From Mustelus asterias (lineage: Eukaryota), in the NCBI RefSeq assembly GCF_964213995.1, contig NW_027590388.1:248001-312000 (forward strand): a DNA stretch of 64,000 bases, read 5' to 3'. The stretch's first letter is position 1; the number at the start of each line of letters is the position of its first letter. The translations under genes and the position numbers were made by a program. The notes under the pieces are model-generated. The model saw nothing but the letters and a program-made list of their open reading frames with translations. It was not told the origin of the DNA and searched no databases. Shown here piece after piece: positions 25,118-52,481 of this stretch.

Positions 25118-25154
25118 CACAAGCTTTCGGAGCTCTAAGCCCCTTCTTCAGGTG
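25118..25154 (-). ncRNA. Minimal hammerhead ribozyme motif (PLE-associated)
   Basis: Reverse complement of 25981-26017. Confidence 0.7.
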
Positions 25155-25980
25155 AGTGGGAATTCTGTTCACAAACAGAGCACATAAAGACACAGACTCA
25201 ATTTACATGAATAATGGTTGGAATGCGAATACTTACAACTAATCAAGTCTTTAAGAAACAAAACAATGTGAGTGGAGAGAGCATCAAGACAGGCTAAAGA
25301 GATGTGTATTGTCTCCAGACAAGACAGCCAGTGAAACTCTGCAGGTCCACGCAACTGTGGGAGTTACAAATAGTGTGACATGAACCCAATATCCCGGTTG
25401 AGGCCATCGTCGTGTGTGCAGAACTTGGCTATCAGTTTCTGCTCAGCGACTCTGCGCTGTCGTGTGTCGCGAAGGCCGCCTTGGAGAACGCTTACCCGAA
25501 TATCAGAGGCCGAATGCCCGTGACCGCTGAAGTGCTCCCCAACAGGAAGAGAACAGTCTCGACAATCACCAGGCAAGACTGTTCTCTTCCTGTTGGGGAA
25601 CACTTCAGCGGTCACGGGCATTCGGCCTCTGATATTCGGGTAAGCGTTCTCCAAGGCGGCCTTCGCGACACACGACAGCGCAGAGTCGCTGAGCAGAAAC
25701 TGATAGCCAAGTTCCGCACACACGAGGACAGCCTCAACCGGGATATTGGGTTCATGTCACACGATTTGTAACTCCCACAGTTGCGTGGACCTGCAGAGTT
25801 TCACTGGCTGTCTTGTCTGGAGACAATACACATCTTTTTAGCCTGTCTTGATGCTCTCTCCACTCACATTGTTTTGTTTCTTAAAGACTTGATTAGTTGT
25901 AAGTATTCGCATTCCAACCATTATTCATGTAAATTGAGTCTGTGTCTTTATATGCTCTGTTTGTGAACAGAATTCCCACT

Positions 25981-26017
25981 CACCTGAAGAAGGGGCTTAG
26001 AGCTCCGAAAGCTTGTG
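25981..26017 (+). ncRNA. Minimal hammerhead ribozyme motif (PLE-associated)
   Basis: cac-CUGAAGA-a-ggggc/uuaga/gcucc-GAA-AGCU-U-gug. Confidence 0.75.
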
Positions 26018-26092
26018 TGGCTTTTGCTACCAAATAAACCTGTTGGACTTTAACCTGGTGTTGTTAAACTTCTTACGTTGTTATATGGTGCA

Positions 26093-26296
26093 CATGATGT
26101 AGAGATGCCGGTGTTGGACTGGGGTGGGCACAGTAAGAAGTCTCACAACACCTGGTTAAAGTCCAATGGGTTTATTTGGAATCACGAGCTTTCAGAGCGC
26201 TGCTCCTTCTCACCTGATGAAGGAGCAGCGCTCTGAAAGCTTGTGATTCCAAATAAACCTGTTGGACTTTAACCTGGTGTTGTGAGACTTCTTACT
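26093..26296. mobile_element. 204-bp non-coding hairpin derivative of the Penelope-like element
   Basis: Same catgatgt..gatgccgg terminus as the element at 48200; ~77-bp inverted arms; degenerate TSD at(a/g)tggtgca. Confidence 0.8.
26211..26245 (+). ncRNA. Minimal hammerhead ribozyme motif
   Basis: cac-CUGAUGA-a-ggagc/agc/gcucu-GAA-AGCU-U-gug. Confidence 0.7.
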
Positions 26297-26899
26297 ATGT
26301 GGTGCATAATGGGTATATTATTTATGGATTTGTATTACAGTTGATGTTGTTTAATTCCAGAATAGTATTGTAACTACTCTGTATATTTTCCAGTCAAAGA
26401 GTCATCAGAGCACAAGATAAATCAATTCAGCAGCTTGAGTCCGTGCCAAGTCTCTGTCGGGGAATCCACTCAGTGCCATTTTTCCTCGATATCCCTGTTC
26501 CCCAGTACGTTTCATTCCTTCAAGTGCCCGACCAATTTTATTTTGAAATCACTGGTCGTCTCCACTTCCACCACTCTCATCGTCAGCGAGTTCCAGAACA
26601 TGATTGCTTGCTCCCTAAGTCAAGTTCTTCCGCACCCACCTGTATCTCTAATCATGTAATAGAGTTCTGAATATTGCATACATTTTTAGTTCACTAAATA
26701 TGCAAATTTTTTATATGCTTAGACACGAGCCTGTGTGAAGATTTCAGGAATATGTGTCCTGTACATGAAACAGTCAGCACGGATCTGTCGATTAGGATGA
26801 ATCAGCACCCTCAGGACAATGTCTCTTTCAGGTCCAGCAAAGTGAGAATGGAGGGAGAGTGTTTGGGATGGAGATTTACAAATTTTCAAGAATGAGACG

Positions 26900-27270
26900 A
26901 AAGAATGTTCCACAGAAACGAGAATTGTCTGTTCTGAGTTTTTATCCTGTACTGACAGCAATGATTTTTGTGAATTTCTTTCACAGCCTATTAGAAGGGG
27001 AGAATTTACAGACACAAATCTCTGACGTTAGAATCTGACAGAGTCACACAATTATTCAGGATCTGAATACCATCGGCATTTGAAACTAGAATGGGAAATG
27101 TTTGTCTGTTCCTTCAAAGTGTTTAAACATCAGTGTGACTGGAAAATCACTGAGACACATCCACTCGAGTGAGAGTATTCCAGTGAACTGACTGTGGAAA
27201 GAGCTTTAACCAGTTACACAGTCTGGAAAAGATCGAAGGATTCACAGTGAGGAGAGTGGCCATGTATGTG
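26900..27270 (+). pseudogene. ZNF leader exon remnant (two dead fingers, body lost)
   Basis: Homologous to 11995-12370; acceptor tttcacag near 26987. Confidence 0.65.
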
Positions 27271-27488
27271 TTACCTGTTATTATGTTTGAGATATTAAAA
27301 AGAGTCAACACAATGTGTGAGTTTGACGCAAAGCTGATTTATTTGACTTTTAGTGAGAATATTAGCCCCTAAAGTGGCTGGGGTTTATTACCAGTGTAAA
27401 CGGACCCTAATGAAGATGGTTCAATCCTGAATGTGAAGAACAGCAACATCCAATCACTGTCGTTACTTGTGAACTCACTGGAGTCTCA

Positions 27489-28578
<1,090 letters not shown>

Positions 28579-28640
28579 GTTCCAAATCTGATGATATCAA
28601 AGTTACGATAAATTGAGCCACTCCGTCAGCTTCCCAACGG

Positions 28641-29406
28641 CAAACTCTCCCCTTCTAACACCCTGTAAAACTGATTTAAAACAGGAGACACGGAGTGAGA
28701 AAGAGAGAGCCCACAGAAACACACAGGCAGCTTGTCAAACTCTCCCCTTCTAACACCCTGTAAAACTGATTTAAAACAGGAGACACGGAGTGAGAGAGAG
28801 AGAGCCCACACAAACACACAGGCAGCTTGTCAAACTCTCCCATTCTAACACCCTGTAAAACTGATTTAAAACAGGAGACACGGAGTGAGAGAGAGAGAGC
28901 CCACAGAAACACACAGGCAGCTTGTCAAACTCTCCCCTTCTAACACCCTGTAAAACTGATTGAAAACAGGAGACACAGAGTGAGAGAGAGAGAGCCCACA
29001 CAAACACACAGGCAGCTTGTCAAACTCTCCCATTCTAACACCCTGTAAAACTGATTTAAAACAGGAGACACGGAGTGAGAGAGAGAGAGCCCACAGAAAC
29101 ACACAGGCAGCTTGTCAAACTCTCCCCTTCTAACACCCTGTAAAACTGATTTAAAACAGGAGACACGGAGTGAGAGAGAGAGAGCCCACAGAAACACACA
29201 GGCAGCTTGTCAAACTCTCCCCTTCTAACACCCTGTAAAACTGATTTAAAACAGGAGACACGGAGTGAGAGAGAGAGAGCCCACAGAAACACACAGGTAG
29301 CTTGTCAAACTCTCCCCTTCTAACACCCTGTAAAACTGATTTAAAACAGGAGACTCGGAGTGAGAGAGAGAGAGCCCACACAAACACACAGGCAGCTTGT
29401 CAAACT
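28641..29406. repeat. 95-bp tandem repeat, 8 units plus 6 bp, each carrying the Z7 splice acceptor on the minus strand
   Basis: caaact recurs every 95 bp from 28641 to 29401; minus strand reads ...gttttaaatcagttttacag|ggtgttagaa. Confidence 0.93.
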
Positions 29407-29869
29407 GATCTGAATGAATCTGGGAATTTGTGGGGCCGGCGCTGAGAAACATTGACCATGAAAACTGCCGGATTGTCACAAAAACCCAACTGGCCTCAAT
29501 GGGAGGAGAGAGAAGGAGGTGAAGGAGAGGGATTTTGTATTTCTACAAGACATATTAAGAGAGTAATTAGCAAAGCAAATTTGACCCCGAGCTTCATAAA
29601 GTGTGATATTGGTCTATAAACAGGGAAGTTATTCTGAATATTTATAAAGCTCTGGTCACCGCTCTTCAGGAAGGATATAAAGATCCTTGAGAAGGTGCAG
29701 AGGAGATTTACCAGAATGGTTCCAGTAAAGGAGGTTGAGGGGAGATTTGATTCAGGTACACAAGATTCTGACAGGTTTCGATCAGGTGGATAAAGAAAAT
29801 CTGTTTCCATTTGCTGATCGTACAAGGGCCAGGGGGACAGATTTAAGGTTTTGGGTAAAACCTTGATTG

Positions 29870-32009
29870 AACATAAGAACATAAGAAATAGGAGCAGGAG
29901 TAGGCCATCTCGCCCCTCGAGCCTGCCCCGCCATTCAATAAGATCATGGCTGATCTGACGTGGATCAGTTCCACTTACCCGCCTGATCCCCATAACCCTT
30001 AATTCCCTTACCGATCAGGAATCCATCCATCCGCGCTTTAAACATATTCAGCGAGGTAGCCTCCACCACCTCAGTGGGCAGAGAATTCCAGAGATTCACC
30101 ACCCTCTGGGAGAAGAAGTTCCTCCTCAACTCTGTCTTAAACCGACCCCCCTTTATTTTGAGGCTGTGTCCTCTAGTTTTAACTTCCTTACTAAGTGGAA
30201 AGAATCTCTCCGCCTCCACCCTATCCAGCCCCCGCATTATCTTATAAGTCTCCATAAGATCCCCCCTCATCCTTCTAAACTCCAACGAGTACAAACCCAA
30301 TCTCCTCAGCCTCTCCTCATAATCCAAACCCCTCATCTCCGGTATCAACCTGGTGAACCTTCTCTGCACTCCCTCCAATGCCAATATATCCTTCCTCATA
30401 TAAGGGGACCAATACTGCACACAGTATTCCAGCTGCGGCCTCACCAATGCCCTGTACAGGTGCATCAAGACATCCCTGCTTTTATATTCTATCGTAAGAA
30501 GTTTAACAACACCAGGTTAAAGTCCAACAGGTTTATTTGGTAGCAAAAGCCACACAAGCTTTCGAGGCTCTGAGCCCCTTCTTCAGGTGAGTGGGAATTC
30601 TGTTCACAAACAGAACTTATAAGACACAGACTCAATTTACATGAATAATGGTTGGAATTGCGTCTCATTTTGCGTTTTCCAATCAACCGGCACTACCCCA
30701 GAATGCAACGAGTTTTGATAAATAATCACTAACGCATCCACTATTACCTCTGACATTTCTTTCAATACCTTGGGATGCATTCCATCCGGACCCGGGGACT
30801 TGTCTACCCAGCACTGCCTCTCTGGTAACATTATATTCTATCCCCCTCGCAATATAGGCCAACATCCCATTTGCCTTCTTGATCACCTGTTGTACCTGCA
30901 GACTGGGCTTTTGCGTCTCATGCACAAGCACCCCCAGGTCCCTTTGCACGGTAGCATGTTTTAATTTGTATCCATTGAGATAGTAATCCCATTTGTTATT
31001 ATTTCCTCCAAAGTGTATAACCTCGCATTTATCAACGTTATACTCCATTTGCCATATCCTCGCCCACTCACTCAGCCTGTCCAAATCTCTCTGCAGATCT
31101 TCTCCGTCCTCCACACGATTCACTTTTCCACTTATCTTTGTGTCGTCTGCAAACTTTGTTACCCTACACTCCGTCCCCTCCTCCAGATCATCTATATAAA
31201 TGGTAAATAGTTGCGGCCCGAGTACCGATCCCTGCGGCACGCCACTAGTTACCTTCCTCCAACCGGAAAAACACCCATTTATTCCGACTCTTTGCTTCCT
31301 GTCGGATAGCCAGTCCCCAATCCACTTTAACACACTATCCCCAACTCCGTGTGCCCTAATCGTCTTCAGCAGCCTTTTATGGGGCACCCTATCAAACGCC
31401 TTTTGGAAATCCAAAAACACCGCATCCACCGGTTCTCCTCCATCAACCGCCCTAGTCACATCTTCATAAAAATCCAACATGTTCGTCAAGCACGACTTTC
31501 CCCTCATGAATCCATGCTGCGTCTGATTGATCGAACCATTTCTATCCAGATGCCCTGCTATCTCCTCTTTAATAATGGATTCCAGCATTTTCCCTACTAC
31601 AGACGTTAAGCTGACCGGCCTATAGTTACCCGCCTTTTGTCTCCTTCCTTTTTTAAACAGCGGCGTAACATTAGCCGTTTTCCAATCAACCGGCACTACC
31701 CCAGAATGCAACGAGTTTTGATAAATAATCACTAACGCATCCACTATTACCTCTGACATTTCTTTCAATACCTTGGGATGCATTCCATCCGGACCCGGGG
31801 ACTTGTCTACCCAGCACTGCCTCTCTGGTAACATTAATTGTATTAAGTATTTCTCCTGCTGCCAACCCTCTATCGTTAATATTTGGCAAACTATTTGTGT
31901 CCTCCACCGTGAAGACCGACACAAAAAATTTATTTAAAGACTCAGCCATATCCTCATTTCCCACTATTAACTCCCCCCTCTCGTCCTCCAAGGGTCCAAC
32001 ATTCACTCT
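29870..32009 (-). mobile_element. Young CR1 LINE ORF2 with RT domain, interrupted at 30494-30830
   Basis: NYRPVSLTS, FLDFQKAFD, GVPQGSVLGP, FADDTK motifs; (ttcttatg)n tail. Confidence 0.93.
30494..30657 (-). mobile_element. Penelope-like 3' fragment with hammerhead motif (30553-30589)
   Basis: Near-identical to 25059-25222; TSD ttatattctatc at 30482 and 30831 flanks a composite insert. Confidence 0.82.
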
Positions 32010-32378
32010 ACCATTCACCATACAAGATCCTGAGGGGACTTGACAGGGTGGATGTGGAAAGGACATTTCCTCTTGTGGGAGAATTTTAAACTCGGCACCA
32101 CAAACTAAGGGGTCACCCGTCTAAATTAGAGATGAGGATTTTTTTTCTCAAAGGATTGTGAGACTTTGGAATATTCTTCCTGCAAAGGTGGTTGAGGCAG
32201 AGTCCTGAATATCTTACAGCAGAGGTGGATAGGTTCTTGATAAGCAAGGAGGTGGAAGGTTATCGGGAGTAGGCAGGAACGTGAAGTTGAGATTAAAATG
32301 AGATCAGCCACAATCTTACTGAATGGGAGAGCGGGGCCGAGTGGCCGACTGCTGCTCCTAATTTGTATGTAAACAGTT

Positions 32379-32445
32379 GTTTCTGTCGTGTTATCACGTT
32401 CGCTTCACACGCGAAATGTGCCCGGTTCGAAATCGGGCCGAAACA
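32379..32445 (+). tRNA. tRNA-Val(CAC) pseudogene
   Basis: Matches the vertebrate Val-CAC sequence (ttatcacgttcgc.tcacacgcgaaa...ccggttcgaaa.cgggc.gaaaca) but lacks ~6 nt of the D arm/A box and has stem mismatches. Confidence 0.8.
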
Positions 32446-32537
32446 CTGTTGGATCTTTCTCATTAAACATGAGCAAAGTCTACATGATTGCTCAACATTT
32501 TGCGAATCTCAATGTTACATCAACTCAAATGCTTCTT

Positions 32538-33290
32538 TACAGTAAATGGCAGAACCCTTAAGGGTATTGATAGGCAGAGGGATCTGGGTGTACAGGCACA
32601 CAGGTTACTGAAAGTGGCAACGCAGGTGGAGAAGGTAGTCAAGAAGGCAAATAGCGTGCTTGTCTTCATCGGCTGGGGCATTGAGATTAAAAATTGGCAA
32701 GTAATATTGCAGCTATATAGAACCTTGGTTAGGCCACACTTGGAATATAGTGTTAAATTCTGGTCGCCACACTACCAGAAGGATGTGGAGGCTTTGGAGA
32801 AGGTACAGAAAAGATTTATCAGGATGTTGCCTGGTATGGAGGGCATTAGCTATGAGGAGGGGTTGAAGAAACTTGGTTTATTCTCACTGGAACGACGGAG
32901 GTTGAGGGATGACCCGATACAAGTCTACAAGATTATGAGGGGCATGGATAGAGTGGATAATCAGAAGCTTTTTCCCAGGGTGGAAGAGTCAATTATTAGG
33001 GGTCACAGGTTTAGGTGCGAGGGGCAAGTTTTAAAGGAAATGTACGAGGCAAGTTTTTTTACACAGAGGGTGGTGGGTGCTTGGAACTCACTGCCGGGTG
33101 AGGTAGTGGAAGCAGATCTGATAGTGACTTTTAAGGGGTGTCTTGACAAATACATGAATAGGATGGGAATAGCGGGATATGGTCCCTGGAAGGGTAGGGG
33201 GTTTTAGTTCAGTCAGGCAGCAAGGTGATGCAGGCTTGGAGGGCCAAAGGGCCTGTTCCTGCACTATAATTTTCTTTGTTCTTTGTTTTG
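32538..33290 (+). mobile_element. CR1 3' fragment (older CR1 pieces at 32010-32370 and 33300-33540)
   Basis: LVRPHLEYSVKFWSP and FFTQRVVGAWNSLP; (tctttgt)n tail. Confidence 0.88.
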
Positions 33291-33679
33291 TTCTTTAGTA
33301 CAGGAGATGTGAGGAAGAGTGTTTTTAGACAGTGAGTGCGAATGACCCAAAACTTGCTGCCCATGATTGGGGTGGAAATGGACATGATGAATAATTTCAA
33401 AAGGAAATTGGATAGACATTGGAGGAAAAGAAATCTGCAAAGATATGAGGATAGAGCAGGGGAATGGGACTGGATTGCTCTAGGCAGATGACATGGACTC
33501 AATGGGCCAAATGGCCTCCTCTGTGCTATAATGACTTCCTGTAATCTCACCTTGTGATTTAACCTGGGGAGTTCAAATATCACTCAGGCAAATCTGTGCT
33601 ACACTCCCTCCAAAGCCATTCTGTCCTTCCTAAGGTATGTTGCTCAGAACCAAGCACAGTTCTCCAGGATTTGTGAATC

Positions 33680-33920
33680 TCAGGGCTTTTCCAGTCACAC
33701 TGAGACCTGAAATCTTCTCTCTCAGACAGAATCGACAAACCTGTTACCTTCCACATTCAGAAGCTGCTGATATCCAGGTCCTGATTTTTTCGAGTGACTC
33801 CGTCAGATCACGATGTGATGTTTGATTTGTGTTTCGCGTCTGTCAAGTCTCCACTTCCAGCACCCTGTAAATTTACAGAAACCATCACTGTCTGTCCAGG
33901 ATAGAAATTCACAACATTCT
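33680..33920 (-). pseudogene. ZNF leader exon remnant
   Basis: gtcagatc..gatgtgatgtttga and ccctgtaaa...ccaggatagaaattc are homologous to the other ZNF acceptor regions. Confidence 0.55.
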
Positions 33921-34814
33921 CTACTCCATAATCGCCAACTGTGATTAAATGTATTCCTGGAGGTTTTATCACATCTTTTATGTTGCCCCCATCCTCCAAC
34001 CTCATTCCACACTGCCTTCCTAGGCCAATTGGAAAGCAAAAAGACTCATCACGTTACAGGACGATTGATGGTCAACCAAACAACTTTTATCTTTTGTCAA
34101 TATTTTAATACCCAGTGAAGAGAAATATTCAAACGAAATTACAAAAAAGTATATTTTTTAATGTCCAGACAATTTTCCAGAGATGCAGGTTTGAATCCCA
34201 CAGTTCAAAGATGTGTAGATTAGGTGGATTAGCTATGCTAAATGTACAGGGTTACAGGGATAGGGCTGGATGGTGGGCCAAATGGCTTCCTTCTGCACTG
34301 TGGGGATTCTATGATCCTATGGTACGGTGAATTTTGAATATAATTAAAATCTGGAACTAAAAGCCTACTGATAACCATGAAACCATTGTTCGTTGTTGTA
34401 AAAACCCATCTAGTTCACTAATGTCTTTGAGGGAAGGTAATCTGCTCTCCTTACCTGGTCTGGCTTATATGTGACTCCAGATCCACAGCAATGTGGTTGA
34501 CTCTTAAAACGTCCTCTGAAACTTAGTTCAAGGACAAATAGGAATGGGTGATGAATGCTGGCCCAGCCAGGGACACCCACAGTGTGAATGAATTAGGAAA
34601 AATATCTGCCATCCTTACCCGGTCTGGTCTAACTATATATCAAGAGCAATGTGGTTGACTCTTAAAATGCCCTGAGATGGCCAAGCAAACCACTCAGTTC
34701 AAGGACAATTAGGGATAGACAATAAATGTTGGCCTAGTCAGCAATTTCCACATTCCCTGGACAAATAAAAAATTCCTGGAGACTTCAGTCCAATCCGGGA
34801 GAGTTGGTAACCGG

Positions 34815-35190
34815 TCCAGGCTCATAGCGCATGCGCCCTGCTGCACATTGTTCCTGTAAAGATGGCGGCCGCTAACCCGGGCCTGGAGTCGCTCAGCTCC
34901 GACTCTATTCGGTACCGATTGAAGCGATACCGGGAACATGTTATCTGAATTAAGGCATCCACTAGGTATTTATGAAGCCTCCCAGCCCACTCCGCTGCTT
35001 CTGTCCCTCCCCGGTCACCCAGCGGCTCCATTACTGAACCTCACTCCATTGTTTCTTTCCGGCTCCTCGCAGCTCCAGTCACAGTCCGGACTGCGCATGC
35101 TCCGGTCAGAGCCAGGTCCTGCGCTTGCGCAATAATTGCAGTAATGTGGATAGGGCACAGTCTCACCCGCAGAGAATGTTGGGTAATCAC
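34815..35190. promoter_or_regulatory. CpG promoter module P4, homologue of P2 in the opposite orientation
   Basis: gcgcatgcgc, YY1 aagatggcggc, donor tag|gtattt near 34965, NRF1 pair tgcgcatgctc...tgcgcttgcgc, ZNF143-like gaatgttgggtaa. Confidence 0.65.
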
Positions 35191-35799
35191 CTCACCATTC
35201 AAACCCATATTGTTCAATAGAAAATACGATTTGCGATCTGATTATGATTGGTACCATTGGGCCAAGGTTCAAATGTGTTACTTCAATTCATTTGGCAACT
35301 AAGCAGCATAGGCCTTCCAGCACATTTCTGTCCTGGGTGTGATTGACAACATAACAATCACCTGCATTTAGATGTGAACTCGCTGGGGTGAACAAGTGAT
35401 TTGTGCCCTCTTGGACAGAACAGTTAAACTATCCCTCGCCAATAAGAGGGGTAGTTAAAATGCTTTGAGCTTTTAAAGTTATAGATTGTTAACCACTGAG
35501 GAAATCCCTTTGCGAACGTTAAGTGTTTGAGTGGTCTTCCTCTGGTGTAATTGTGCTGTTCTATCGGTAAATGGGATGACTGAGTCAATTTTCACATTCA
35601 GCTGGGAAATAATTTGTTGATGGTGGGATTTAATCCAAAGGTTTACAGCTTGGACGGGAATCTCAAAAATTGGGCAAAAAATGCTGGTCTTGCCAGCAAT
35701 GCCCACACCCCACGAATTATTATTATTTTTAAACAGTTCCTTTTGAAGTGCTCTCCATCTCCCTGTCTCCTTCTTCCTCAAAGCATCAAACTTAAGGGA

Positions 35800-36692
35800 A
35801 AAGCATATAGCTACACAGAGGTGAGTGACAGGTCAGATGATTGGCTGGAATATAAAGAACAGTAGAGAATTACTAAAAGGTTAATTGGAAGAAAAATATT
35901 AGAGTATGAGAGGAAGTTAGCTGTTAAAGTAAAAATGAATAGCAAGAGTTTCTAGAGGTATTCGAAAAGGAAAAGAGGAATAAGGTGAGTGTTGGCTCTC
36001 TGGAGAATGAGAATGGGGAGTAATAATAGATAATAAATGGCCAATGAAATAAACAAATCTTTCATAGAAATCATAGAAACCCTACAGTACAGAAAGAGGC
36101 CATTCGGCCCATCGAGTCTGCACCGACCACAATCCCACCCAGGCCCTACCCCCATATCCCTGTTTCTGTCTTCACTATAGAAAATACAAAACCAGCCAGT
36201 CCTCGCTGTAAATCAGGAGGTGGAAGGGGGAGAGGAACTAGGAGAAATTACAATGACGTGGGAAGCTGTACTGAGCAAACTGATGGAGCTGCGGCTGACA
36301 AGTCTCTGGGTCACGATGGAATTCATCCTAGCATCTTAAGAAGGTGGTTAATGAGATAGTGACAGTAGATTTGTTGGTGTTAATTTTCCAAAGTTCCCTA
36401 GATTCTGGAGAGGTTCCATCAGACTGGAAAGTAGCAAATATAAGCCCTCCAATTCAAGAACGGATGGTGGCATAAGACAGGAAATCTAGGCCAGTTCGTT
36501 AGACATTTGTTGTGGGGAAGATGTTAGAATCAATCATTAAGAACCTAAGAACATAAGAAATAGGAGCAGGAGTAGGCCATCTAGCCCCTCGAGCCTGCCC
36601 CGCCATTCAATAAGATCATGGCTGATCTGAAGTGGATCAGTTCCACTTACCCCCCTGATCCCTATAACCCCTAATTCCCTTACCGATCAGGA
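35800..36692. mobile_element. Decayed CR1 ORF2 (+) with an inserted SINE tail, followed by a CR1 3' tail (-, 36541-36692)
   Basis: Remnant NSKSF.RY...KR and DKSLGHDGIHP motifs; tail nearly identical to 29870-30022. Confidence 0.65.
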
Positions 36693-38373: not shown

Positions 38374-39316
38374 ACAAGTTGCTATTTCACACATCCAAAG
38401 GGAGATTTCACTGAAGTTTGGGGGATTGTCAAATTTTCAAAACACAAACTGGCAACAAACAAGCTTGGATATTGGAAAAAAAGGTTTCCATTGGGGAAAT
38501 AAATTGCAGATTAAGGAAACCTGTCATAACACTGGGAGTCCAAAGATGTGCGGGTTAGGTTGATTGGCCATGCTAAAATTGCCCCTTCGTGTCCTGGAAT
38601 GCGTAGATTAGAGGGATTAGCGGGTAAAATATGTAGGGATATGGGAGCAGGGCCTGGGTGGGATTGTGGTCGGTGCAGACTCGATGGGCCGAATGGCCTC
38701 TTTCTGTGCTGTAGGGTTTCTATGATTCTATGAGTTGAATTTGAGCTAATATTGAAATTTACAAAAAAAGTGGGTGACTTTTATATAAAACTATCTAAAA
38801 TAACAAACAAATTGTGTTGCCACCTGGAATCAAATTGGCATGTTTGATTCCTGTTTTAAAGATATTACGAGAGTTGGACAGAAAAGTTTCTCCAGGCCAC
38901 ATGAATGAGATGGGATGGTAACTAATGGGATGTTCAAATGAGAGCAAGTGATTGAGGGTGAGAAATAGAGTGACGGGAAAATAACACACCACTGATTGGG
39001 AATTGAAATAACCCAATGTGGGTGCTGTTCAATGGAATATGGCAATGAGGTATTGATGTATATTTTAGTAAAGGGAAAGTCTAGATGCGACTAATAAAAT
39101 GATGGCTCTCTTGGGGATGTTTATATCCTTGTGCATGAACTTTCACAGAGAATTGCATTTGATAAACTGGCCACTGCCAAAGATGTTGAAGAATGCATGG
39201 GAAGACAAGCAAAGATCCTTACAGACATCTAGTGTGACTAGGTAGTAAGTTTCAGAAGAAATTATTCATATTCAGACCAGTTACATTTTATGTTTACTTA
39301 AGTAAACTTTACTTTT

Positions 39317-39625
39317 GGGGTGGTACGGTGGCACAGTGGTTATCATTGCTGCCTCATAGCGCCAGGGATCCATGTTCGATTCTGGCCTTGGGTGACTGTG
39401 TAGAGTTTGCACATTCTCCCCGTGTCTGTGTGGGTTTGCGGTTTCCTCCCACAATCCAAAGATGTGCGGGTTAGGTTGATTGGCTATGCTAAATTGCCCC
39501 TTAGTGTCAGGGGGATTAGCAGAGTAAATATGTGGAGTTACAGGGATAGGGCTCAGGTGTGATTGTTGTCAGCGCAGGCTCGATGGGCCAGATGGCCTCC
39601 TTCTGCCCTGTAGGAATTCAGTGAT
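39317..39625 (+). mobile_element. HE1-like V-SINE, type A
   Basis: Head, central domain and CR1-type tail all present. Confidence 0.8.
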
Positions 39626-39649
39626 CCTGAAAAAGACATTTAGTGTCCA

Positions 39650-40600
39650 GTGATTAACCATTTGTATTAATCAGTGAACTGTATTAATTAGTCACCAGTC
39701 AGAAACAAATTATCAAAAAAAAGTGAGCCTCAATTAATTATCATTGAAAACTTAATGATCTATTAATAGTTTTTCAGTTAAATGTTAGTTTCAAAATGGC
39801 TTCATTGATCTTGTTAGCTTACTTCATAGAATAGAATCATAGAAGCCCTACATGCAGGAGGCCATTCAGCCCATCGAGGTTGCACTGACAACAATCCCAC
39901 CTGTGCCCTATCCCCATAGCCCTATCCCTGTAACCACAATATTAATAGTTATATTAAAAGCCTGGTATATTCTTATAATTCTGTAAGCCAGTTTTAAATT
40001 GCATACCACAATTTCTGTAAGAAGGAATGTGTGATCTGATGAGATGATTAACAACGAGTCCTTTGCGGCCTGGGTTAAACTGATTTGGAGCCGAAAGGTT
40101 ACACAATGAATAGAAGGCTTGCCCAGGATCAGATAGGAGGGATGCACTGAACAGTCCCATTCTATCTCTATCTGAGACAGTTAACCAAATCATTCAAAAT
40201 CACTTGAATCGATTCAATAATGAAATCAACCAACCATTGCATTCTACCCAGTTTATTCGAGTTGAGGTAAGAGCCATTGAAGGATTTAAATCTTGAGGAT
40301 TCGAATTTTTAAATCCCTCGAGTTGCTGGCCAAGGACTGGAAGCCCCAAAGCACGATTCTCATCAGAATTGTTGTCAATCAAGGGGTACACAAGGAATTA
40401 TGCTTTTACAGTCTGATCAACCAAGAGAAATGGTAAAAGTCTGTTCTGTATTGATAAATGTATCTTTTTCCTTCTGTATTGATAAGTATTTGCCTTTTAA
40501 ATAAATTTATTTCAATTTACCATCTGAGATTCTTGTCTTACCCAGTGGTTAAGTCTTGTTCAAACTAAAACAATTGAATGAACAATTGACAAGCTCTGAT
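39650..40600 (+). mobile_element. Unclassified old repeat, possibly a solo LTR; related to 57430-58250 (-) and 15150-15650 (-)
   Basis: Shared blocks actgtattaattag..cagtcag.aacaaat and aataaa.ttattt..aatttacc...gattc.tg...tggtta. Confidence 0.35.
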
Positions 40601-40639
40601 GGATTGGGTTGATTGTCACTCGCCTTAAATAAATTATAA

Positions 40640-41072
40640 GCTGGACACCATCCAGGACAAAGCAGCCCCGCTGGCATCCCATCCACAAACATTCACCCCC
40701 TTCACCATCGATGAACAGTGGTAGCAGTGTGTACCATCCGTAAGATGCACTGCAGTAACTCATCAAGGTTCCTTAGGCAGCACCTTCCAACCCACTACCA
40801 TTTAGAAGGACAAGAGCAGCAGAAACATGAGAACACCACCACCTAGAAGTTCCCCTCCAAGTCACTCACCATCCTGACTTGGAAATATATCACTATTCCT
40901 TCACTGTCGCTGGGTCAAAATCCTGCAATTCCCTCCCTAACAGCACTGTGGGGGTACCTACACCTCAGGGACTGCAGCAATTCAACAAGGTAGCTCACTA
41001 TTACCTTCTAAACGGCATCTAAGGATGGACAATAAATGCTGGCCGAGCCACATCACATGAATAAAAAAAAAA
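40640..41072 (+). mobile_element. Old LINE 3' end (CR1/L2 group) sharing its tail with the 38032 SINE
   Basis: LDTIQDKAA remnant; tail ggatggacaataaatgctggcc...atgaataaaaaa. Confidence 0.6.
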
Positions 41073-41654
41073 GAAATTGTTAACGTGAAAAGTAATTTTT
41101 TTAAAAAATCATCAATGTGTTGACACTTACTCCACAGAGAAACTGACTTTAAAACACCCAGGACGGAACTAAAATCATTGGTTCTGGTCAACAGGAGTAA
41201 AATTGAAATAAAGGAATTGAGTTTGGACAACTGGAGACTAGGAATAAATAATCCTGAATGAGAATTATCCTCAAGATAGATACAGGTGAAGGGAGAGCTG
41301 GTGAATTTTTAAAGTCCAAGCATGATCTGTCACTTTAATGGTATGTATTTATTTGCTAATAATTTAGAATTAACGGCACTCCTGAGGATAAGGAAAATCA
41401 GAGAGTGTTGTGCGGAGTGCCAATCTCCACACAAAATGACCATCTTTGAAAAAGTTAAAAACAGGCTCCTGAGAGGGAAAAAAATACTCTGGAATTTTTT
41501 TTTAAGTGATCCACACTGCGTGGCCTCTGTCAGGCAGGAGACAACCTGGGAAGAATTTCCTAACACTTCAATTCAGAAGGAGCTGGCTCTGCCAACCATC
41601 AACAACAGAAACAATCACTCATCCTGTCGGATCAGGAAACCAGAGTAGAAATGT

Positions 41655-41935
41655 CAGTTACCAGGGGACATAGGTTTAAGGTAAAGGGGGGAAAGTTTAA
41701 AGGAGATGTGAGAGGCAAGTGTTTCACACAGAGGATGTAAATGCCTGGAATGCGCTACCAGAGGAGGTGGTAGACGCAGAATGTTTAATAGGCATCTTGA
41801 CAGATTCATGAATAGGCAGGGAATAGAAGGGTATGGACCACATAGAGGCAAAGGGTCTTTAGTTCAGGAAGGCATCATGTGTCAGCATAGGCTAAGTGGG
41901 CCAAAGGCCTGTTCCTGTGCTGTAATGTTCTTTGC
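41655..41935 (+). mobile_element. CR1 3' fragment
   Basis: TRGHRFKV..KFKGDVRG remnant; CR1 tail. Confidence 0.75.
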
Positions 41936-42174
41936 TCTCCTTTCACAGCTCGTATGTTTCTGCTGATCTATTTTGTTCATACATGATATTTAAACGGCTG
42001 CCTCTTCATAAACTACTTTAAAATTATGTCAGCGTAATCTCCCTTATCCCCCACCTCACTTTGTGGATAACCTGTGACTCCCAAAACCAAACCTTAACAG
42101 TTCCAGCTCTTGATAACTTCCAGAGTGTCTCTTTGAGCCTTGGTATTCAGGGATGGTATTAGTAACAATGGCCT

Positions 42175-42666
42175 TGGGAGTGTTTGATGGGGTCATATAT
42201 GTATAGAAGAGGATTTATTCTGTATCTAACTCCGTGCTGTATATTTCCTGGGGATATTTGGGGAAGAGAGTGTAAGGGGAGCTTTACTCTGTATCTAACC
42301 TTGTGCTGTATCTGTCCTGGGAGTGTTTGATGGGGACAGTACAACGGGAGCTTTATTCTGCAACCCCGTGCTGTACCTATCTGGGAGTGTTTCATGGGGA
42401 CAGTGTAGCGGGAGCTTTACTCTGTATCTAACCCCATGCTGTACCTGTCCTGTGAGTGTTTGATGGAAACAGTGTAGAGGGAACTTTTCTCTGTATCTTA
42501 CTCCATGCTGTCCTGGGAATGTTTGATGGGGACAGTGTAAAAGGAGCTTTATTCTGTATCTAACCCCATGCTGTACGTGCCCTGGCAGTTTTGATGGAGT
42601 CAGTGTAGAAAGGGATTTAATCAGTATCTAACCCCGTGCTGTATGTTTCCTGGGATTGTTTGATGG
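42175..42666. repeat. Degenerate ~69-bp tandem repeat, about 7 units
   Basis: Consensus ctgggagtgtttgatggggacagtgtagagggagctttactctgtatctaaccccgtgctgtacctgtc. Confidence 0.88.
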
Positions 42667-42679
42667 CCCCGCAAAATGA

Positions 42680-42780
42680 CACTGCGCATGCTTCTGATCG
42701 AATCCAGTTCTGCGCATGTTCACTGCTCTCTTGTAGCATGAATAGGGCATATTCATATCCGCACGGCATGGTGGGTAACA
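42680..42780. promoter_or_regulatory. Orphan fragment of the promoter module (NRF1 pair plus ZNF143-like site)
   Basis: tgcgcatgct...tgcgcatgtt...atagggca...gcatggtgggtaa, homologous to 35090-35190. Confidence 0.5.
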
Positions 42781-43609
42781 GCAGCGCCATTGTGACTTGA
42801 AACTGGGAATAGGAATCCCAAAAGAACAGGGAGCAGTGATTATAAAAACCAGGGAATTAACAGAAAAGTCCCAGGAAGACTGAAGTCAAAGAGACAAAAG
42901 GAACTGGAAACTGAGCAATGTACTTACTGTTCCCTGAAGTTAAAGACAAAGAGAAAGGCTCCCAGTTAAAGTCAGAGCTGACAGGTGCAGACTTGGTGAA
43001 GTTGACTCGGGAGAAGCCAGATATCTGAAGCAATCCTAAGGTTGATGATATCTTAATACAGCCTGTGAAGCAGTGATCTTCCGTTAGCATGGCTGAATGA
43101 TTGTGTGGAAGCTTGATTGCACGTGGCAATCCAAGGCATGTCTTTTCGAGTGTTGAGTTTGCAAACATTTGTTTGGAAGCTGCAGTTCCAATGAAACCAG
43201 TTGGCTCACAATGTGATCATCATCTGGGGGAAATTCAATGAGAAATCCACAGAAGATGTATTTGGTGGTGTCTGCCACTTGGTATGAGAGTGTGATGTAT
43301 CTGACCACAGTCAGAGCTCACAGGTGCAGACTTGGTGAAGTCTATCCAAGCTTTGTAAAAAAAGGAAACAAGTAGCCAGAGTAAATCTTGGTCCCTTAGC
43401 CAGAGGAAGCTCACTTCAAAAGCAACTAACTTGTGTGAAGAAATATTAAAAACATTTGCCACATTTTGTTTCACACAAAACGGATTTAGTTTAATTTTAT
43501 CCAGAACAGTAACACCTATTTCCGAGCTGCAGTTTATGAACACCAGCAGAATGGAACCCCAATGAATGTTGTTCTGGGTGTGATTAACAGCAAACTTTAA
43601 CTCCTGCCT

Positions 43610-44908
43610 TCACTTATGAATTCGCTGATGCGTCAGCAGGTTGGATTTCCGAGTAAATCCCTTCCCACACTTGGAGCAGGTGAATGGTTTCTCCCCAGTG
43701 TGAACTCGCTGGTGTTCAATTAGTATCGACGATCGACTGAACCCAGTCCCACATTGAGAGCACATGAATGGCCTCTCGTCAGTGTGAACACGTTGGTGGG
43801 ACCTCAGATCTCCAGATCGTTTGTAGCACTTCCCACAGTCTGGGCATTTGAAAGGTCTCTCCTCAGTGTGAACCCGCTGGTGAGCCATGAGTTGGGAGGA
43901 CTGAGTGAATCCCTTCCCACAATTGGAGCAGGTGAACGGTCTCTCCCCAGTGTGAATTCGCTGGTGTTCAGTGAGATGGGATGATTGCCTGAATCCAATT
44001 GCACAGTGAGAGCACCTGAACGGTCTCTTGTCAGTGTGAACATGCTGATGGGATTTCAGTTCTCCAGAACTTTTATAGTAATTCCCACAGTCTGGGCACT
44101 TGAAAGGTCTCTCTCCAGAGTGAACCCGCTGGTGCACCATGAGTTGGGATGACCGACTAAATCCCTTCCCACACTCCGTGCAGGTGAATGGCCTTTTCCC
44201 AGTGTGAATTCGCTGGTGTACAGTGAGTTGAGATGATTGCCTGAACCCAGTCCCGCAGTGAGAGCACCTGAACGGTCTCTCCTCAGTGTGAACGCGTTGG
44301 TGGTACGTCAGTTCCCAGGAGCTTTTATAGCCCTTTCCACATTCTGAACAGTAAAAAGGTCGTTCCTCAGTGTGAACTTGCTGATGGCGTGTCAGTTCCC
44401 GGGAACTTTTAAAGCACTTCCCACATGCTGGACATTTAAAAGGTCTCTTGTCAGTGTGAACTCGCTGGTGTGATAGCAGGTTGCTTGTGTGAATGAATCC
44501 CTTCCCACACTGGGAGCAGGTGAATGGCCTCTCCCCGGTGTGAACTCTCTGGTGTACCAGCAGATTGGATGACTGAGTGAATCCCTTCCCACATTTGGAG
44601 CAGGTGAATGGTCTCTCTCCAGTGTGAACTTGCCGGTGTCTCAGCAGGTTGAACGACTGAGTGAATCCTTTCCCACACACAGAGCAGGTGAACGGCCTCT
44701 CCCCAGCATGAACTCGCTGGTGAATTTCCAGTTCAGATGGGGAATAGAATCCTTCCTCGCAGTCCCCACATTTCAACGGCTTCTCTTCAGTGTGACGGCA
44801 CTTGTGGTTCGTGGGGTCAGATGATTCATACACAGAACACGCGTACAGATTCTCCCCACTGCAATCGATGCTTTTTTCTTCCATGTTCAAAATCCAATCA
44901 TGATACAA
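43610..44908 (-). CDS. C2H2 ZNF Z2B, 14 fingers (probable ATG 44884)
   Basis: Intact ORF; paralogue of the frameshifted Z2A. Confidence 0.92.
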
Positions 44909-45144
44909 TGGTCACAATAAATTGGGCGACTCCATCAGATCCTGATGTGATGTTCGCTTTGTGTTTCCCGACTGAAAATCCTCCTCTTCTAAAACCCTGT
45001 GAAACTGATTTAAATGGAAAAAAGGCAGTGAGCGCGAACCCACAGAAACACAAAGGCAGGTTGTGAAATTGAGCTGAATGAATCTGGTCATTTGTGGGGC
45101 CGGCACTGGGAAAAAGTTACCATGGAAACTGCCGGATTGTCATT

Positions 45145-45415
45145 GGGCGGCACGGGGGCACAGTGATCAGCTCTGCTGCCTCACAGCGCCAGGGACCCGT
45201 GTTTGATTCCCAGCTTGGGTCACTGTCTGTGTGGAGTTTGTACGCTCTCCCTGTGTCTGCGTGGGTTTCCTCCGGGTGCTCTGGTTTCCTCCCACAGTCC
45301 GAAAGACATGCTGCTTAGTTGCATTGACCCGAACAGGTGCTGGATTGTGGCAACTAGGGGAATTTCACAGCAACTTCATTGATGTGTTAATGTAAGCCTA
45401 CTTGTGACTAATAAA
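45145..45415 (+). mobile_element. V-SINE-like SINE type B (paralogue of 7705)
   Basis: Same position and sequence as in copy A. Confidence 0.8.
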
Positions 45416-46225
45416 TTTTTAACTTTAAAAAAACCCACCTGATTCACTAATGTCCTTCAGGGAAGGAAACCTGCTCCCTGGTCAGGGGCGACACAAGACT
45501 CTGGACAATCTGGGAGAAGAGATCGAGGGGGAAGAGGCAGAGAGACAGAAGTAGGAGAGGGTGAGACAGAATTGGGCAGCACAGGAAAAAAGGAATTTCA
45601 AATATTTCAAACTCCCACAACCTCCACCACCTCGATGGAGCAATGAAGCAGGCGTATGGGAACACCATCATCTCCAAGTTCCTTTTCAACTCACACACCA
45701 TCCTGACGTGTCTGACATCCAGTACTGGATGAACAGAAACTTCCTCCAATTGAATATTAAGAACAAAGCCGTTGTCTTCAGTCCTCACAACAGACTCCAC
45801 TCTCTCTCCCTGGCAACTGTCTGAGGCTGAACCAGACTTCTCACAACCTCAGTGTCCTGTCTCACCCCAAACTGAGCTTCCAGCCACATATCCTCACCAT
45901 CACCCAGAATGTCTATTTCCACCTCAGTAACATCGCCCGAGTCTCAAATCATCTTGTTCAGAAACTCTCATCCATTCCTTTGTTACCTCTGGACTTAACT
46001 ATCCCAGAGCACTCTTTGCTGGCCTCCCACATTCAGCCTCCCTGCAATCCTGAGGTCATCCAAAACTCTGCTGTCTGTGTAATTATTCAAGACTTGTTCA
46101 CCCATCACCCCTGTGCTCACTGACCTATAAAGGTTCCTGTTTAAGAACCACTAACATTTTAAAACTCCCGTTCTTGTTTCCAAATTTCTCCATGACTGCG
46201 ACCACTCCTCTCTCTGTAATATCCT

Positions 46226-46730
46226 TCAGTCACACAATTCTCCATCATCGATGCTCTCCCCTAATTCCAGCCTCTCTTCAGTGTGAACATATTGATGGGA
46301 TGTCAGTTCCTGGGAACTTTTATAGCACTTCCCACAGTCTGGGCATTTAAAAGGTCTCTCGTCAGTGTGAACTCGCTGTTGTGTCATGGGTAATGATGAC
46401 TGAGTGAATTGTTTCCCACATACAGAGCAGGTGAATGGCCTCTCCCCCAGGTGAAGCTGCTGGTGTTTCAACAGGTTGTTTGACTTATTGAATCACAACC
46501 CACACTCAGAGCCAGTTCACAGCCTCTCCCTTGTGTGACTGCGTTGCTGAGTTTCCAGTTTAGACGGTAACTGAAGGCCTTCTCACAGTCCTCATGTTTC
46601 CACAGTTTTCCCCGGTGTGATAGTGTCTCGACAGGTTAGATGATTGGTTGAAGCCTCATCCACACATAGAACATATGTACGGTTTTTCCCCACTGTGAAC
46701 AGTGCTTTTTCCTTCAATGTTCAAAATCCC
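46226..46730 (-). pseudogene. ZNF pseudogene Z3B
   Basis: Degenerate fingers and the same truncation as Z3A. Confidence 0.8.
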
Positions 46731-47453
46731 ATAATTTGGACAACTCCATCTGATGTGAATGTTTGGTTTGAGTTTCCTGACTACATATCCTCCTCTTTCA
46801 ATACCTCATGAAATTAATTTAAAACAGAGAAAAGGGAGTGAGAGAGTGCCCACAAAAACACAAAGGCAGGTTATGAAATTGAGCTGAATGAATCTGGTAA
46901 TCTGTGGGGTCGACACGAGGAAAAAGTGACCATGGAAGCTCCTGGATTGTCACAAAAACCCAACTGGTTCACTAATGTCCTTTAGGGAAGGGAACTTACC
47001 ACCCAGTCTGGGCCTACACAAGACTCTGGCCTCTATAGGAGGGGAGAGAGGTGAAAGAGGCAGGAACAAAGGAGGTGATTTTCTACTTTGAATTCTAAAA
47101 CTTTGACAAAATTCTCCAAACCTTCAACTTCCACACCAAGGAGGACCAGGTGTATGCGAACAGCATAATCTCCAAATTCCCCTCCAACTCGCACACTGTC
47201 CTGCCCTGTCCGATATCCAGTACTGAATGAACAGCAATGTGCTCCATTTAACTACTGGGAAGAAGAAAACCATTGTTTCTCTTCAGTCCCCGCTACAAAC
47301 TCCACTCCCAAACTACTGACTCCATCCTTTTCCCTGACAACTGTCTGAGACTGAACCGGACTGTTCCCAGCCTCAATAACAGCTTTCACTCTAAACTGAG
47401 CTCCTGACCTCATATCTGAATAATCACCAAGACTGCCAATTTCCATCTCAGTA

Positions 47454-48165
47454 CAAAGATCAAAGAACAAAGAACATTACAACACAGGGACAGGCCCTTC
47501 GGCCCTCCAAGCCTGCACCAACCATGCTGCCCGACTGAACTAAAACCCCCTACCCTTCTGGGGACCATATCCCTCTATTCCCATCCTATTCATGTACTTG
47601 TCAAGATGCCCCTTAAAAGTCACTACCGCTTCCACTACCTCCCCTGGCAACGAGTTCCAGGCACCCACTACTCTCTGTGTAAAAAGTCTGCCTCGTACAT
47701 CTCCCTTAAACCTCGCCCCTCGCACCTTAAACCTATGCCCCCCAGTAATTGACTCTTCCATCCTGGGAAAAAGCTTCTGACTATCCACTCTGTCCATGCT
47801 TCTCATAATCTTGTGGACTTCTATCAGGTCTCCCCTCAACCTCCTTCGCTCCAGTGAGAACAAACCAAGTTTCTCCAACCTCTCCTCATAGCTAATGCCC
47901 TCCATACCAGGCAACATCCTGGTAAATCTTTTCTGTACCCTCTCCAAAGCCTCCACATCCTTCTGGTAATGTGGCGATCAGAATTGAACACTATATTCCA
48001 AGTGCGGCCTAACTAAGGTTCTATAAAGCATCAACATGAGTTGCCAATTTTTAAACTCAATGCCCCGGCCGATGAAGGCAAGCATGTCATATGCCTTCTT
48101 GACTAGTTTCTCCACCTCCATTGCCACTTTCAGAGACCTGTGTACCTGATGTGACCTGTGTACCT
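47454..48165 (-). mobile_element. CR1 3' fragment specific to copy B
   Basis: ORF 47540-47956; absent from copy A at ~10014. Confidence 0.88.
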
Positions 48166-48295
48166 GACCTGAGTAACATCACCTGACTCTGTCCTTAGAC
48201 ATGATGTGTAGTTGCCGGCGTTGGACTGGGGTGAACACAGTAAGAAGTCTCACAACACCAGGTTAAAGTCCAACAGGTTTATTTGGTAGCAAATA

Positions 48296-48332
48296 CCTTT
48301 AGCTTTCGGAGCGCTGCTCCTTCGTCAGATGG
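48296..48332 (-). ncRNA. Minimal hammerhead ribozyme motif
   Basis: ccau-CUGACGA-a-ggagc/agc/gcucc-GAA-AGCU-A-aagg (one helix I mismatch). Confidence 0.62.
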
Positions 48333-48640
48333 AGTGGAAATGTGCTCTCAAACAGGGCACAGAGACACAAAAAACAAGTTACAGAATACTGATTAGAATG
48401 CGAATCCCTACAACCAGCCAGATCTTAAAGATACAGACAATGTGGGTGGAGGGAGCATTAAGCACAGGTTAAAGAGATGTGTATTGTCTCCAGACAGGAC
48501 AGCTAGTGAGATTCTGCAAGTCCAGGAGGCAAGCTGTGGGGGTTACTGATAATGTGACATAAATCCAACGTCCCGGTTTAGGCCGTCCTCATGTGTGCGG
48601 AACTTGGCTATCAGTTTCTGCTCAGCGATTCTGCGCTGTC

Positions 48641-49935
48641 ATGGATTCATGAGGGGAAAGTCGTGCTTGACGAACATGTTGGATTTTTATGAAGATGTGA
48701 CTAGGGCGGTTGATGGAGGAGAACCGGTGGATGCGGTGTTTTTGGATTTCCAAAAGGCGTTTGATAAGGTGCCCCATAAAAGGCTGCTGAAGAAGATTAG
48801 GGCACACGGAGTTGGGGGTAATGTGTTAAAGTGGATTGGGGACTGGCTATCCGACAGGAAGCAAAGAGTCGGAATAAATGGGTGTTTTTCCGGTTGGAGG
48901 AAGGTAACTAGTGGCGTGCCGCAGGGATCGGTACTCGGGCCGCAACTGTTTACCATTTATATAGATGATCTGGAGGAGGGGACGGAGTGTAGGGTAACGA
49001 AGTTTGCAGACGACACAAAGATAAGTGGAAAAGTGAATCGTGTGGAGGACGGAGAAGATCTGCAGAGAGATTTGGACAGGCTGAGTGAGTGGGCGAGGAT
49101 ATGGCAAATGGAGTATAACGTTGAGAAATGCGAGGTTATACACTTTGGAGGAAATAATAACAAATGGGATTACTATCTCAATGGAAACAAATTAAAACAT
49201 GCTACCGTGCAAAGGGACCTGGGGGTCCTTGTGCATGAGACGCAAAAGCCCAGTCTGCAGGTACAACAGGTGATCAAGAAGGCAAATGGGATGTTGGCCT
49301 ATATTGCGAAGGGGATAGAATATAAAAGCAGGGATGTCTTGATGCACCTGTACAGGGCATTGGTGAGGCCGCAGCTGGAATACTGTGTGCAGTATTGGTC
49401 CCCTTATATGAGGAAGGATATATTGGCATTGGAGGGAGTGCAGAGAAGGTTCACCAGGTTGATACCGGAGATGAGGGGTTTGGATTATGAGGAGAGGCTG
49501 AGGAGATTGGGTTTGTACTCGTTGGAGTTTAGAAGGATGAGGGGGGATCTTATGGAGACTTATAAGATAATGCGGGGGCTGGATAGGGTGGAGGCGGAGA
49601 GATTCTTTCCACTTAGTAAGGAAGTTAAAACTAGAGGACACAGCCTCAAAATAAAGGGGGGTCGGTTTAAGACAGAGTTGAGGAGGAACTTCTTCTCCCA
49701 GAGGGTGGTGAATCTCTGGAATTCTCTGTCCACTGAGGTGGTGGAGGCTACCTCGCTGAATATGTTTAAAGCGCGGATGGATGGATTCCTGATCGGTAAG
49801 GGAATTAAGGGTTATGGGGATCAGGCGGGTAAGTGGTACTGATCCACGTCAGATCAGCCATGATCTTATTGAATGGCGGGGCAGGCTCGAGGGGCTAGAT
49901 GGCCTACTCCTGCTCCTATTTCTTATGTTCTTATG
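48641..49935 (+). mobile_element. Young CR1 (RT domain to 3' end, frame open to 49842) nested in the PLE
   Basis: HGFMRGKSCLTN, FADDTK; (ttcttatg)n tail; short tgtc duplication. Confidence 0.93.
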
Positions 49936-50824
49936 TCGTGTGTCGTGAAGGCCGCCTTGGAGAACGCTTACCTGAAGATCCAAGGCTGAATGCCCACGAC
50001 TGCTGAAGTGCTCCCCCACAGGAAGAGAACAGTCTTGCCTGGTGATTGTCGAGCGGTGTTCATTCATCCGTTGTCGTAGCATCTGCATGGTTTCCCCAAT
50101 GTACCATGCTTCGGGACATCCTTTCCTGCAGCGTATCAGGTAGACAACGTTGGCCGAGTTGCAAGAGTAGGTACCGTGTACCTAGTAGGCGGTGTTCTCA
50201 CGTGAGATGATGGCATCCGCGTCGATGATCCGGCACGTCTTGCAGAGGTTGCTGTGGCAGGGTTGTGTGGTGTCGTGGTCACTGTTCTCCTGAAGGCTGG
50301 GTAGTTTGCTGCGGACAATGGTCTGTTTGAGGTTGCGCAGTTGTTTGAAGACAAGAAGTGGGTGTGTGGGGATGGCCTTGGCGAGATGTTCGTCTTCATC
50401 AATGACACCGCTCGACAATCACCAGGCAAGACTGTTCTCTTCCTGTGGGGGAGCATTTCAGCAGTCACGGGCATTCAGCCTCTGATCTTCAGGTAAGCGT
50501 TCTCCAAGACGGCCTTCACGACACACCACAACGCAGAGTCGCTGAGCAGAAACTGATAGCCAAGTTCCGCACACATGAGGATGGCCTAAACCGGGATGTT
50601 GGATTTACGTCACATTATCAGTAACCCCCACAGCTTGCCTCCTGGACTTGCAGGCCGTTCTGTCTGGAGACAATACACATCTCTTTAACCTGTGCTTAAT
50701 GCTCCCTCCACCCACATTGTCTGTATCTTTAAGATCTGGCTGGCTGTCGGGATTCGCATTCTAATCAGTATTCTGTAACTTGATTTGTGTGTTTCTGTGC
50801 CCTGTTTGAGAGCACATTTCCACT

Positions 50825-50861
50825 CCATCTGACGAAGGAGAAGCGCTCCGAAAGCTAATGG
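50825..50861 (+). ncRNA. Minimal hammerhead ribozyme motif
   Basis: ccau-CUGACGA-a-ggag/aagcg/cucc-GAA-AGCU-A-augg. Confidence 0.72.
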
Positions 50862-52478: not shown

Positions 52479-52481
52479 TCC

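Follow-up and report, generated by a model that had tools for sequence, protein, structure and literature searches.

The stretch analyzed here, 64,000 nucleotides of the genome of Mustelus asterias (contig NW_027590388.1, positions 248,001 to 312,000 of assembly GCF_964213995.1; hereafter, the window), carries C2H2 zinc-finger (ZNF) genes together with truncated insertions of a Penelope-like element (PLE) in which hammerhead ribozyme motifs are embedded. A first-pass annotation had listed six such motifs, and all of them were found at the coordinates and on the strands assigned to them; they belong, however, to only four truncated insertions, two of which are inverted pairs, and thus do not represent six independent occurrences. 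Insertion E1 (25024..26076) consists of two 5'-truncated element ends placed head to head, with 507-bp arms that are 98% identical. Each arm comprises the C-terminus of a GIY-YIG domain, a 3' untranslated region (UTR) and a hammerhead of subfamily A (25118..25154 on the minus strand in the left arm; 25981..26017 on the plus strand in the right arm), while a long tail is present solely on the left arm; a 12-bp target duplication (25012-25023 / 26077-26088) lies within the sequence CTG-N16-CAT. E2 (26094..26295), a fold-back stub of about 200 bp at the right border of E1 with a target duplication of about 11 bp, contains a subfamily D motif (26211..26245, plus strand) and, in its left arm, a seventh, 5'-truncated copy that lacks CUGA (approximately 26180-26209, minus strand). 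E3 (30494..30658, minus strand) is a 165-bp 3' stub within a fragment of a long interspersed nuclear element (LINE) and holds a single motif of subfamily A with a GGGGC/GCCUC helix II (30553..30589, minus strand). Finally, E4 (48200..50917) is an inverted pair with two subfamily B motifs (48296..48332, minus strand; 50825..50861, plus strand), the left arm of which is interrupted by a 1.3-kb LINE (approximately 48640-49936); its 12-bp target duplication (48188-48199 / 50918-50929) also lies in CTG-N16-CAT. Both LINEs are presumably of the CR1 type.

Numbered according to the hammerhead convention, the core CUGANGA / GAAA / UH and a palindromic AGCU at 15.2-16.2 were present in all six motifs, none of which possesses a helix III. 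Predicted cuts fall at H17, which is U at positions 25121, 26014, 26242 and 30556, and A at positions 48300 and 50857. Three of the six copies have defects that the first-pass annotation does not list: a G10.1-U11.1 wobble opens helix II in the motif at 26211, two A residues face each other in helix I of the motif at 48296, and the fifth helix II pair is disrupted in the motif at 50825. The extra A after A9, for which the CChMVd viroid hammerhead provides a precedent, occurs in all 126 genomic copies placed (see below), although that position served in the placement itself. It is no peculiarity of this locus, being a described trait of the minimal hammerheads of PLEs (PMC4209133).

A structure descriptor made up of the core, a 4-bp helix II and the palindrome gave six matches in the window compared to one in 100 shuffled windows altogether. 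An Rfam search of the window yielded no match at gathering scores; between 25000 and 26400, no hammerhead family was retrieved at E<=10, and just hairpin (microRNA) models scored, below their cut-offs. Such a miss is expected because the motif lacks helix III. While the Rfam result could be read in favor of a chance likeness to the hammerhead, the single hit among shuffles, the reversed control of the genome search (0 vs. 120,596 matches), the fixed place of the motif in the end repeat of the element (pLTR) and the covariation of its helices make this explanation negligible.

To define the parent element, 20 genomic loci around long reverse transcriptase (RT) frames were fetched, three of which (L113-L115) show a full unit with a period of 3,021 nt, ordered as hammerhead, 99 nt, ATG, an open reading frame (ORF) of 892 aa encoding RT and GIY-YIG, 3' UTR and hammerhead. 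The ORF matched RVT_1 (E=2.4e-9) and carries YIDD at aa 533, a C-x4-C-xx-C linker at aa 754-763 and YIGET at aa 806, which we take to be the GIY-YIG motif; the Pfam GIY-YIG model gave no match on the ORF. A C-x2-5-C-xx-C linker between RT and endonuclease (EN) is given as a trait of Neptune and Nematis elements in PMC8557442, and the element would accordingly be Neptune-type, as judged from the linker motif rather than from a tree. The copies in the window align to the 3' end of the unit with 81-98% identity, and partial tandems, an inverted 5' copy, a one-sided tail and a target duplication were all observed among element copies. The six motifs are therefore best described as minimal type I hammerhead sequences that sit in the pLTR of this Penelope-like retrotransposon. 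An internal RT fragment of the same element, without hammerhead, lies at 5024..5840 on the plus strand.

This element is very abundant. A 34-nt segment directly 3' of the hammerhead and common to all motifs had 157,190 exact matches in the genome, and a strict pattern of core plus helix II had 120,596, a lower bound for intact motifs. Since at least 120,596 motifs correspond to 2.1 strict matches expected per 64 kb, the five strict matches found among the six motifs of the window, which are not independent, are unremarkable (P=0.06), and the hammerhead cluster is ordinary as a local density.

Conservation of the motif was analyzed in 158 tail-anchored copies, 106 of which have an intact core; placement succeeded for 126, and the other 32, being truncated or rearranged, were left out. 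Four subfamilies emerge from the placed copies, distinguished by N7, H17, loop 2 and both helices, with no change between them at the 11 core positions. Compared with the 3' UTR of subfamilies A-C, where 54 of 209 positions changed (p 0.04-0.07), this core invariance is only suggestive. Across the genome, helix I has C-G as its first pair in 62,974 copies, U-A in 35,328, C-A in 3,046 and U-G in 2,576. For a selection of 23 variants, pairing held in 99.1% of 230 cells and six of ten pairs had changed on both sides, whereas only 27-47% were paired in a slid-partner control, a covariation figure that is inflated by relatedness. Covariation of helices I and II is thus supported, though by few independent events, and, as the helices covary between subfamilies, it indicates that the structure is kept in the master elements. 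In this respect, the anatomy of the element, the counts and the pairing bear out the compensatory changes, the Penelope-like origin and the existence of several subfamilies that had been proposed from the window.

A search pattern that fixes the core and leaves the helices free also retrieved a second family, with helix II GGGUC/GACUC and the palindrome ACGU (3,768 matches vs. 91 in the control). Its members (exemplified by L133-L152) amount to at least 3,768 copies that mostly start just 5' of helix I; no PLE ORF could be linked to this family, and no copy of it was found in the window.

Inserted copies behave differently from master elements. In subfamily B, C11.1-G12 forms a CpG, the decay of which gives either UG, a tolerated wobble, or CA, that is, a G12A change in the core, where G12 is essential. 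Both outcomes were equally frequent (2,199 and 2,268, respectively; p=0.31). G8A was counted 1,557 times, and the harmless C7U roughly seven times among the first 100 matches listed. Likewise, private changes per site in the core (25/1386, 1.8%) were as frequent as in helix II (25/1260, 2.0%) and the linker (12/596, 2.0%), with higher values in the distal flank (3.8%) and helix I (4.8%). Inserted copies of the subfamily tested hence decay neutrally, without regard to the core. The proposal that the motifs are selected was not sustained, given this symmetric decay at a tolerated and a core position and the damage in three of the six copies; selection on an individual copy, as expected of a domesticated hammerhead, was likewise not observed against family-wide neutral decay. 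With 10^5 copies, the genome provides a clean internal test in which inserted motifs are neither retained nor purged. This leaves less room for models in which such ribozymes regulate the host.

Traces of cleavage were sought in the starting points of 241 arms. By hand count, and leaving out two degenerate rows, eight arms from six insertions (L085, L060, L096, L101, L112 and L151) start at -1 to +1 of the predicted cut, while the 27 positions that follow share about 31 arms. This surplus of about twofold is only suggestive of cutting in vivo. Arm ends also accumulate 29-45 nt ahead of the cut, in part because extension was ungapped. The majority of copies continue across the cut site, with ends invariably 60-100 nt past it, which implies a template that is mostly uncut or religated. 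Minimal hammerheads of this kind reportedly cleave as dimers (Lunse et al.). According to two further studies, the monomer is inactive and the dimer weak (PMC4209133), and cleavage in the anole element is assisted by protein and dispensable for insertion in vitro (PMC11167929).

Taken together, the reading we favor, with a probability of roughly 85%, is that the six motifs stem from a very abundant element, likely cut RNA only as dimers within tandem transcripts of full-length elements, and are likely inert in the four truncated insertions. Two same-strand hammerheads would pair via AGCU and thereby form helix III, probably aided by the protein of the element. Cutting would not be required for insertion, because copies continue for 60-100 nt after the predicted cut and the majority read through it. 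In head-to-head pairs, the ribozyme is predicted to enter a duplex as soon as it is made, since transcription of either strand produces the antisense arm first.

Several points weigh against this interpretation. Cleavage is predicted here from sequence, and nearest-neighbor energies place the active dimer well above alternative dimers, although this comparison is uninformative. The Neptune assignment follows from a linker motif and not from a tree, and the helix I counts go back to approximately a single ancestral change that was then multiplied. The CpG test, which covers a single subfamily, would not detect selection on a few copies. Further, private changes are rarer in the core than in the flanks taken together (25/1386 vs. 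74/2234; p=0.006-0.014), which speaks against neutral decay. We discount the pooled difference because it is confounded by a placement that needed a near-intact motif, by lineage variants in the 13-nt flank and by truncation. Lastly, the tail beside the hammerhead is as conserved as the core, with changes at two of 47 positions (19 of the 47 being the anchor), and core invariance therefore does not single out catalysis.

This last point also bears on the possibility that master elements retain the motif because it serves, near the start of reverse transcription, as a structural RNA signal or a site of protein binding, catalysis being vestigial. In line with such a role, the majority of copies read through the cut site, the study of the anole element reports insertion in vitro without cleavage and no RNA-seq ends at the site (PMC11167929), and Naiad elements are described as thriving without canonical hammerheads (PMC8557442). 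A structural signal would, however, hardly account for the persistence of 11 core bases in four subfamilies in which N7, H17 and loop 2 vary, for the swap of the palindrome from AGCU to ACGU in the second family, for the slight surplus of copies starting at the cut, or for the protein-assisted cleavage of the anole motif (PMC11167929), and we consider it improbable.

The genomic context was then compared with the suggestion that the motifs lie in ZNF introns, where they could cut pre-mRNA. This placement is supported for one motif only: E3 lies in sense within a GT-AG intron (28671..33747, minus strand) of a C2H2 ZNF gene whose finger exon (27523-28670; Pfam zf-C2H2) ends with a stop at 27523. 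The CT..AC joint 28670>33748 was seen in runs X19 and X1, which are not recorded as RNA, and it may stem from a paralogue; the splice signals were confirmed in the sequence. Three motifs are outside introns on present evidence, as E1 and E2 lie between this stop and the CpG island (23.7-24.3 kb) that belongs to the following ZNF gene, 3' of all four polyadenylation signals of the former (27389, 27343, 26542 and 26355), and hence no intron is indicated there. No RNA record is listed for 26300-29400; contig pieces reaching 26216 were not used, their ends and strand not being visible. For E4, a position in intron 1 of a ZNF gene on the minus strand is probable, provided that the CpG island at 52.5 kb is bidirectional.

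Cutting of ZNF pre-mRNA by these copies is unlikely, because five motifs sit in inverted repeats, in which the antisense arm is transcribed first from either strand, and the sole motif supported as sense within an intron, that of E3, has no dimer partner, the nearest same-strand motif being 5.4 kb away, past the finger exon. On folding of E1 to E3, 37/37, 37/37 and 28/35 motif bases paired outside the motif in the inverted repeats, compared to 12/37 for E3. The stronger version of this proposal, that the copies are host-selected ribozymes which regulate these genes, could draw on the sense orientation of the motif at 30553 in a spliced intron, on that of the motif at 48296 if the 52.5-kb island drives a minus-strand ZNF gene, and on the location of the motifs at 25981 and 26211 on one strand, 230 nt apart and both with AGCU. 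The latter two, however, are antisense to both ZNF genes and lie past the polyadenylation signals of one and upstream of the promoter of the other; moreover, the CpG decay is symmetric, half of the copies are already damaged, the local density is ordinary, the antisense arm is made first and predicted to pair, and monomers were inactive in the assays cited (PMC4209133). Host regulation is thus very improbable. The conserved segment 3' of the hammerhead contains AATAAA followed by a GU-rich stretch (26031-26037 and equivalents). This may be a polyadenylation signal, and its influence on host transcripts could exceed that of the ribozyme.

The target duplications allowed us to rebuild insertion sites. 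Out of 106 arm pairs (drawn from L003-L232), 78 had an exact duplication of at least 8 bp, with a mode of 12 bp, and 70 remained after removal of near-duplicates. A perfect CTG-N16-CAG was found in 23 of these 70 targets (0.36% at random), as opposed to 0-3 sites at each of the spacers 12-15 and 17-21; allowing up to one mismatch, the numbers were 47/70 (5.5% at random) and 1-18 at other spacers. CAG was in excess at offset 14-20 (112/200 vs. 28-38), with no excess at another offset (17/114). The 12-bp duplication is centered in the motif, two bases inside each arm. The targets of E1 and E4 fit five of the six motif bases, and about one third of target sites do not fit. Mimicry of the element's own tail was ruled out as the source of the motif, as the pLTR lacks CTG-N16-CAG. 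No published report of this target was found, subscription papers and Repbase/Dfam entries being outside the search.

The motif likely shows how the nuclease of the element cuts, and it points to an enzyme that acts as a dimer and to priming on either strand. Such an endonuclease would nick CTG-N16-CAG on each strand, two bases ahead of the CAG (5' of NNCAG), both 3' ends would prime cDNA at two sites in the tail, and such twin priming would generate the head-to-head arms, the one-sided tail and the 12-bp duplication. In keeping with this, the anole protein is described in PMC11167929 as cutting and extending both strands from two RT starts and as a predicted dimer. We tentatively propose, at slightly less than even odds, a sequence-guided Neptune family in which a GIY-YIG dimer acts on CTG-N16-CAG, leaves 12-nt 3' overhangs (a polarity that is part of the model) and primes on both strands at two fixed RNA sites, which would explain the head-to-head arms and the one-sided tail that characterize Penelope-like insertions and would automatically silence the inserted ribozyme, with a few per cent of copies recording cuts in vivo. 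For a class of retroelements that is studied in vitro and whose integration mechanism is largely open, the target motif offers a precise substrate and cut geometry.

With regard to insertion history, E1/E2 are present at three further places as segmental copies with 99-100% identity, and no empty site for E1, E2 or E4 was found among the fetched sequence. Independent element copies occupy one identical position of the CR1-type LINE (window 30493; L114, L053 and L059), and the LINE inside E4 shows 98-99% identity. This identity and the mutual insertion of LINE and element indicate that both families were recently active.

The hammerheads themselves are a described feature, and their pairing at Penelope ends is known (PMC4209133). 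The PLE minimal hammerheads of Cervera and De la Pena (2014; PMC4209133) share the type I architecture without helix III, the extra nucleotide at A9/10.1, the G10.1-C11.1 pair, the palindromic 15.2-16.2, the pLTR position, thousands of dispersed truncated copies and opposite-strand pairs 100-700 bp apart. They differ in number, with 4,000 in coelacanth and 9,000 in Xenopus vs. at least 120,596 here; the searchable supplement file of that study contains no shark term, while its figures may include more vertebrates. Poseidon of Anolis carolinensis (Frangieh et al. 2024; PMC11167929) also has a hammerhead close to where pLTR and ORF meet, a tail delimited by two 3' end points, and tandem units. 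However, the cut lies 26 nt after the ATG in Anolis and 99 nt before it here, the Cys linker here is Neptune-type, and the targets are CTG-N16-CAG instead of AT-rich ATT. EN+ Neptune elements (Craig et al. 2021; PMC8557442) share the RT, the C-x2-5-C-xx-C linker and the C-terminal GIY-YIG, as well as 5' truncation, the inverted 5' copy and a one-sided tail of 30-40 bp, whereas a microsatellite bias is mentioned there and a spaced palindromic target was found here. Non-LTR retrozymes (PMC7229834; bioRxiv 10.64898/2026.07.22.740005) are likewise type I and PLE-related, and their number in axolotl (126,247) is similar, with a density about seven-fold higher here. They form, however, short head-to-tail arrays with canonical motifs, in contrast with the copies in the window, which derive from a coding element and occur singly or as head-to-head ends; a retrozyme identity was rejected, since these copies lack a head-to-tail arrangement and include the end of the ORF.

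Other features of the window include a segmental duplication of about 10 kb (89-97% identity) of a divergent ZNF gene pair (6430-16541 and 43869-59000), the second copy of which acquired nested insertions at 47453-51055. At 28641-29406, a 95-bp tandem repeat in about eight copies has a ZNF splice acceptor in each, and RNA contigs use the last one. A 33-bp minisatellite of LINE-like origin (59042-61600; about 70 copies) is open in several frames, and 38-bp GC-rich repeats with NRF1-like words, together with an 18-bp repeat array (23930-24665), lie next to the ZNF promoter island.

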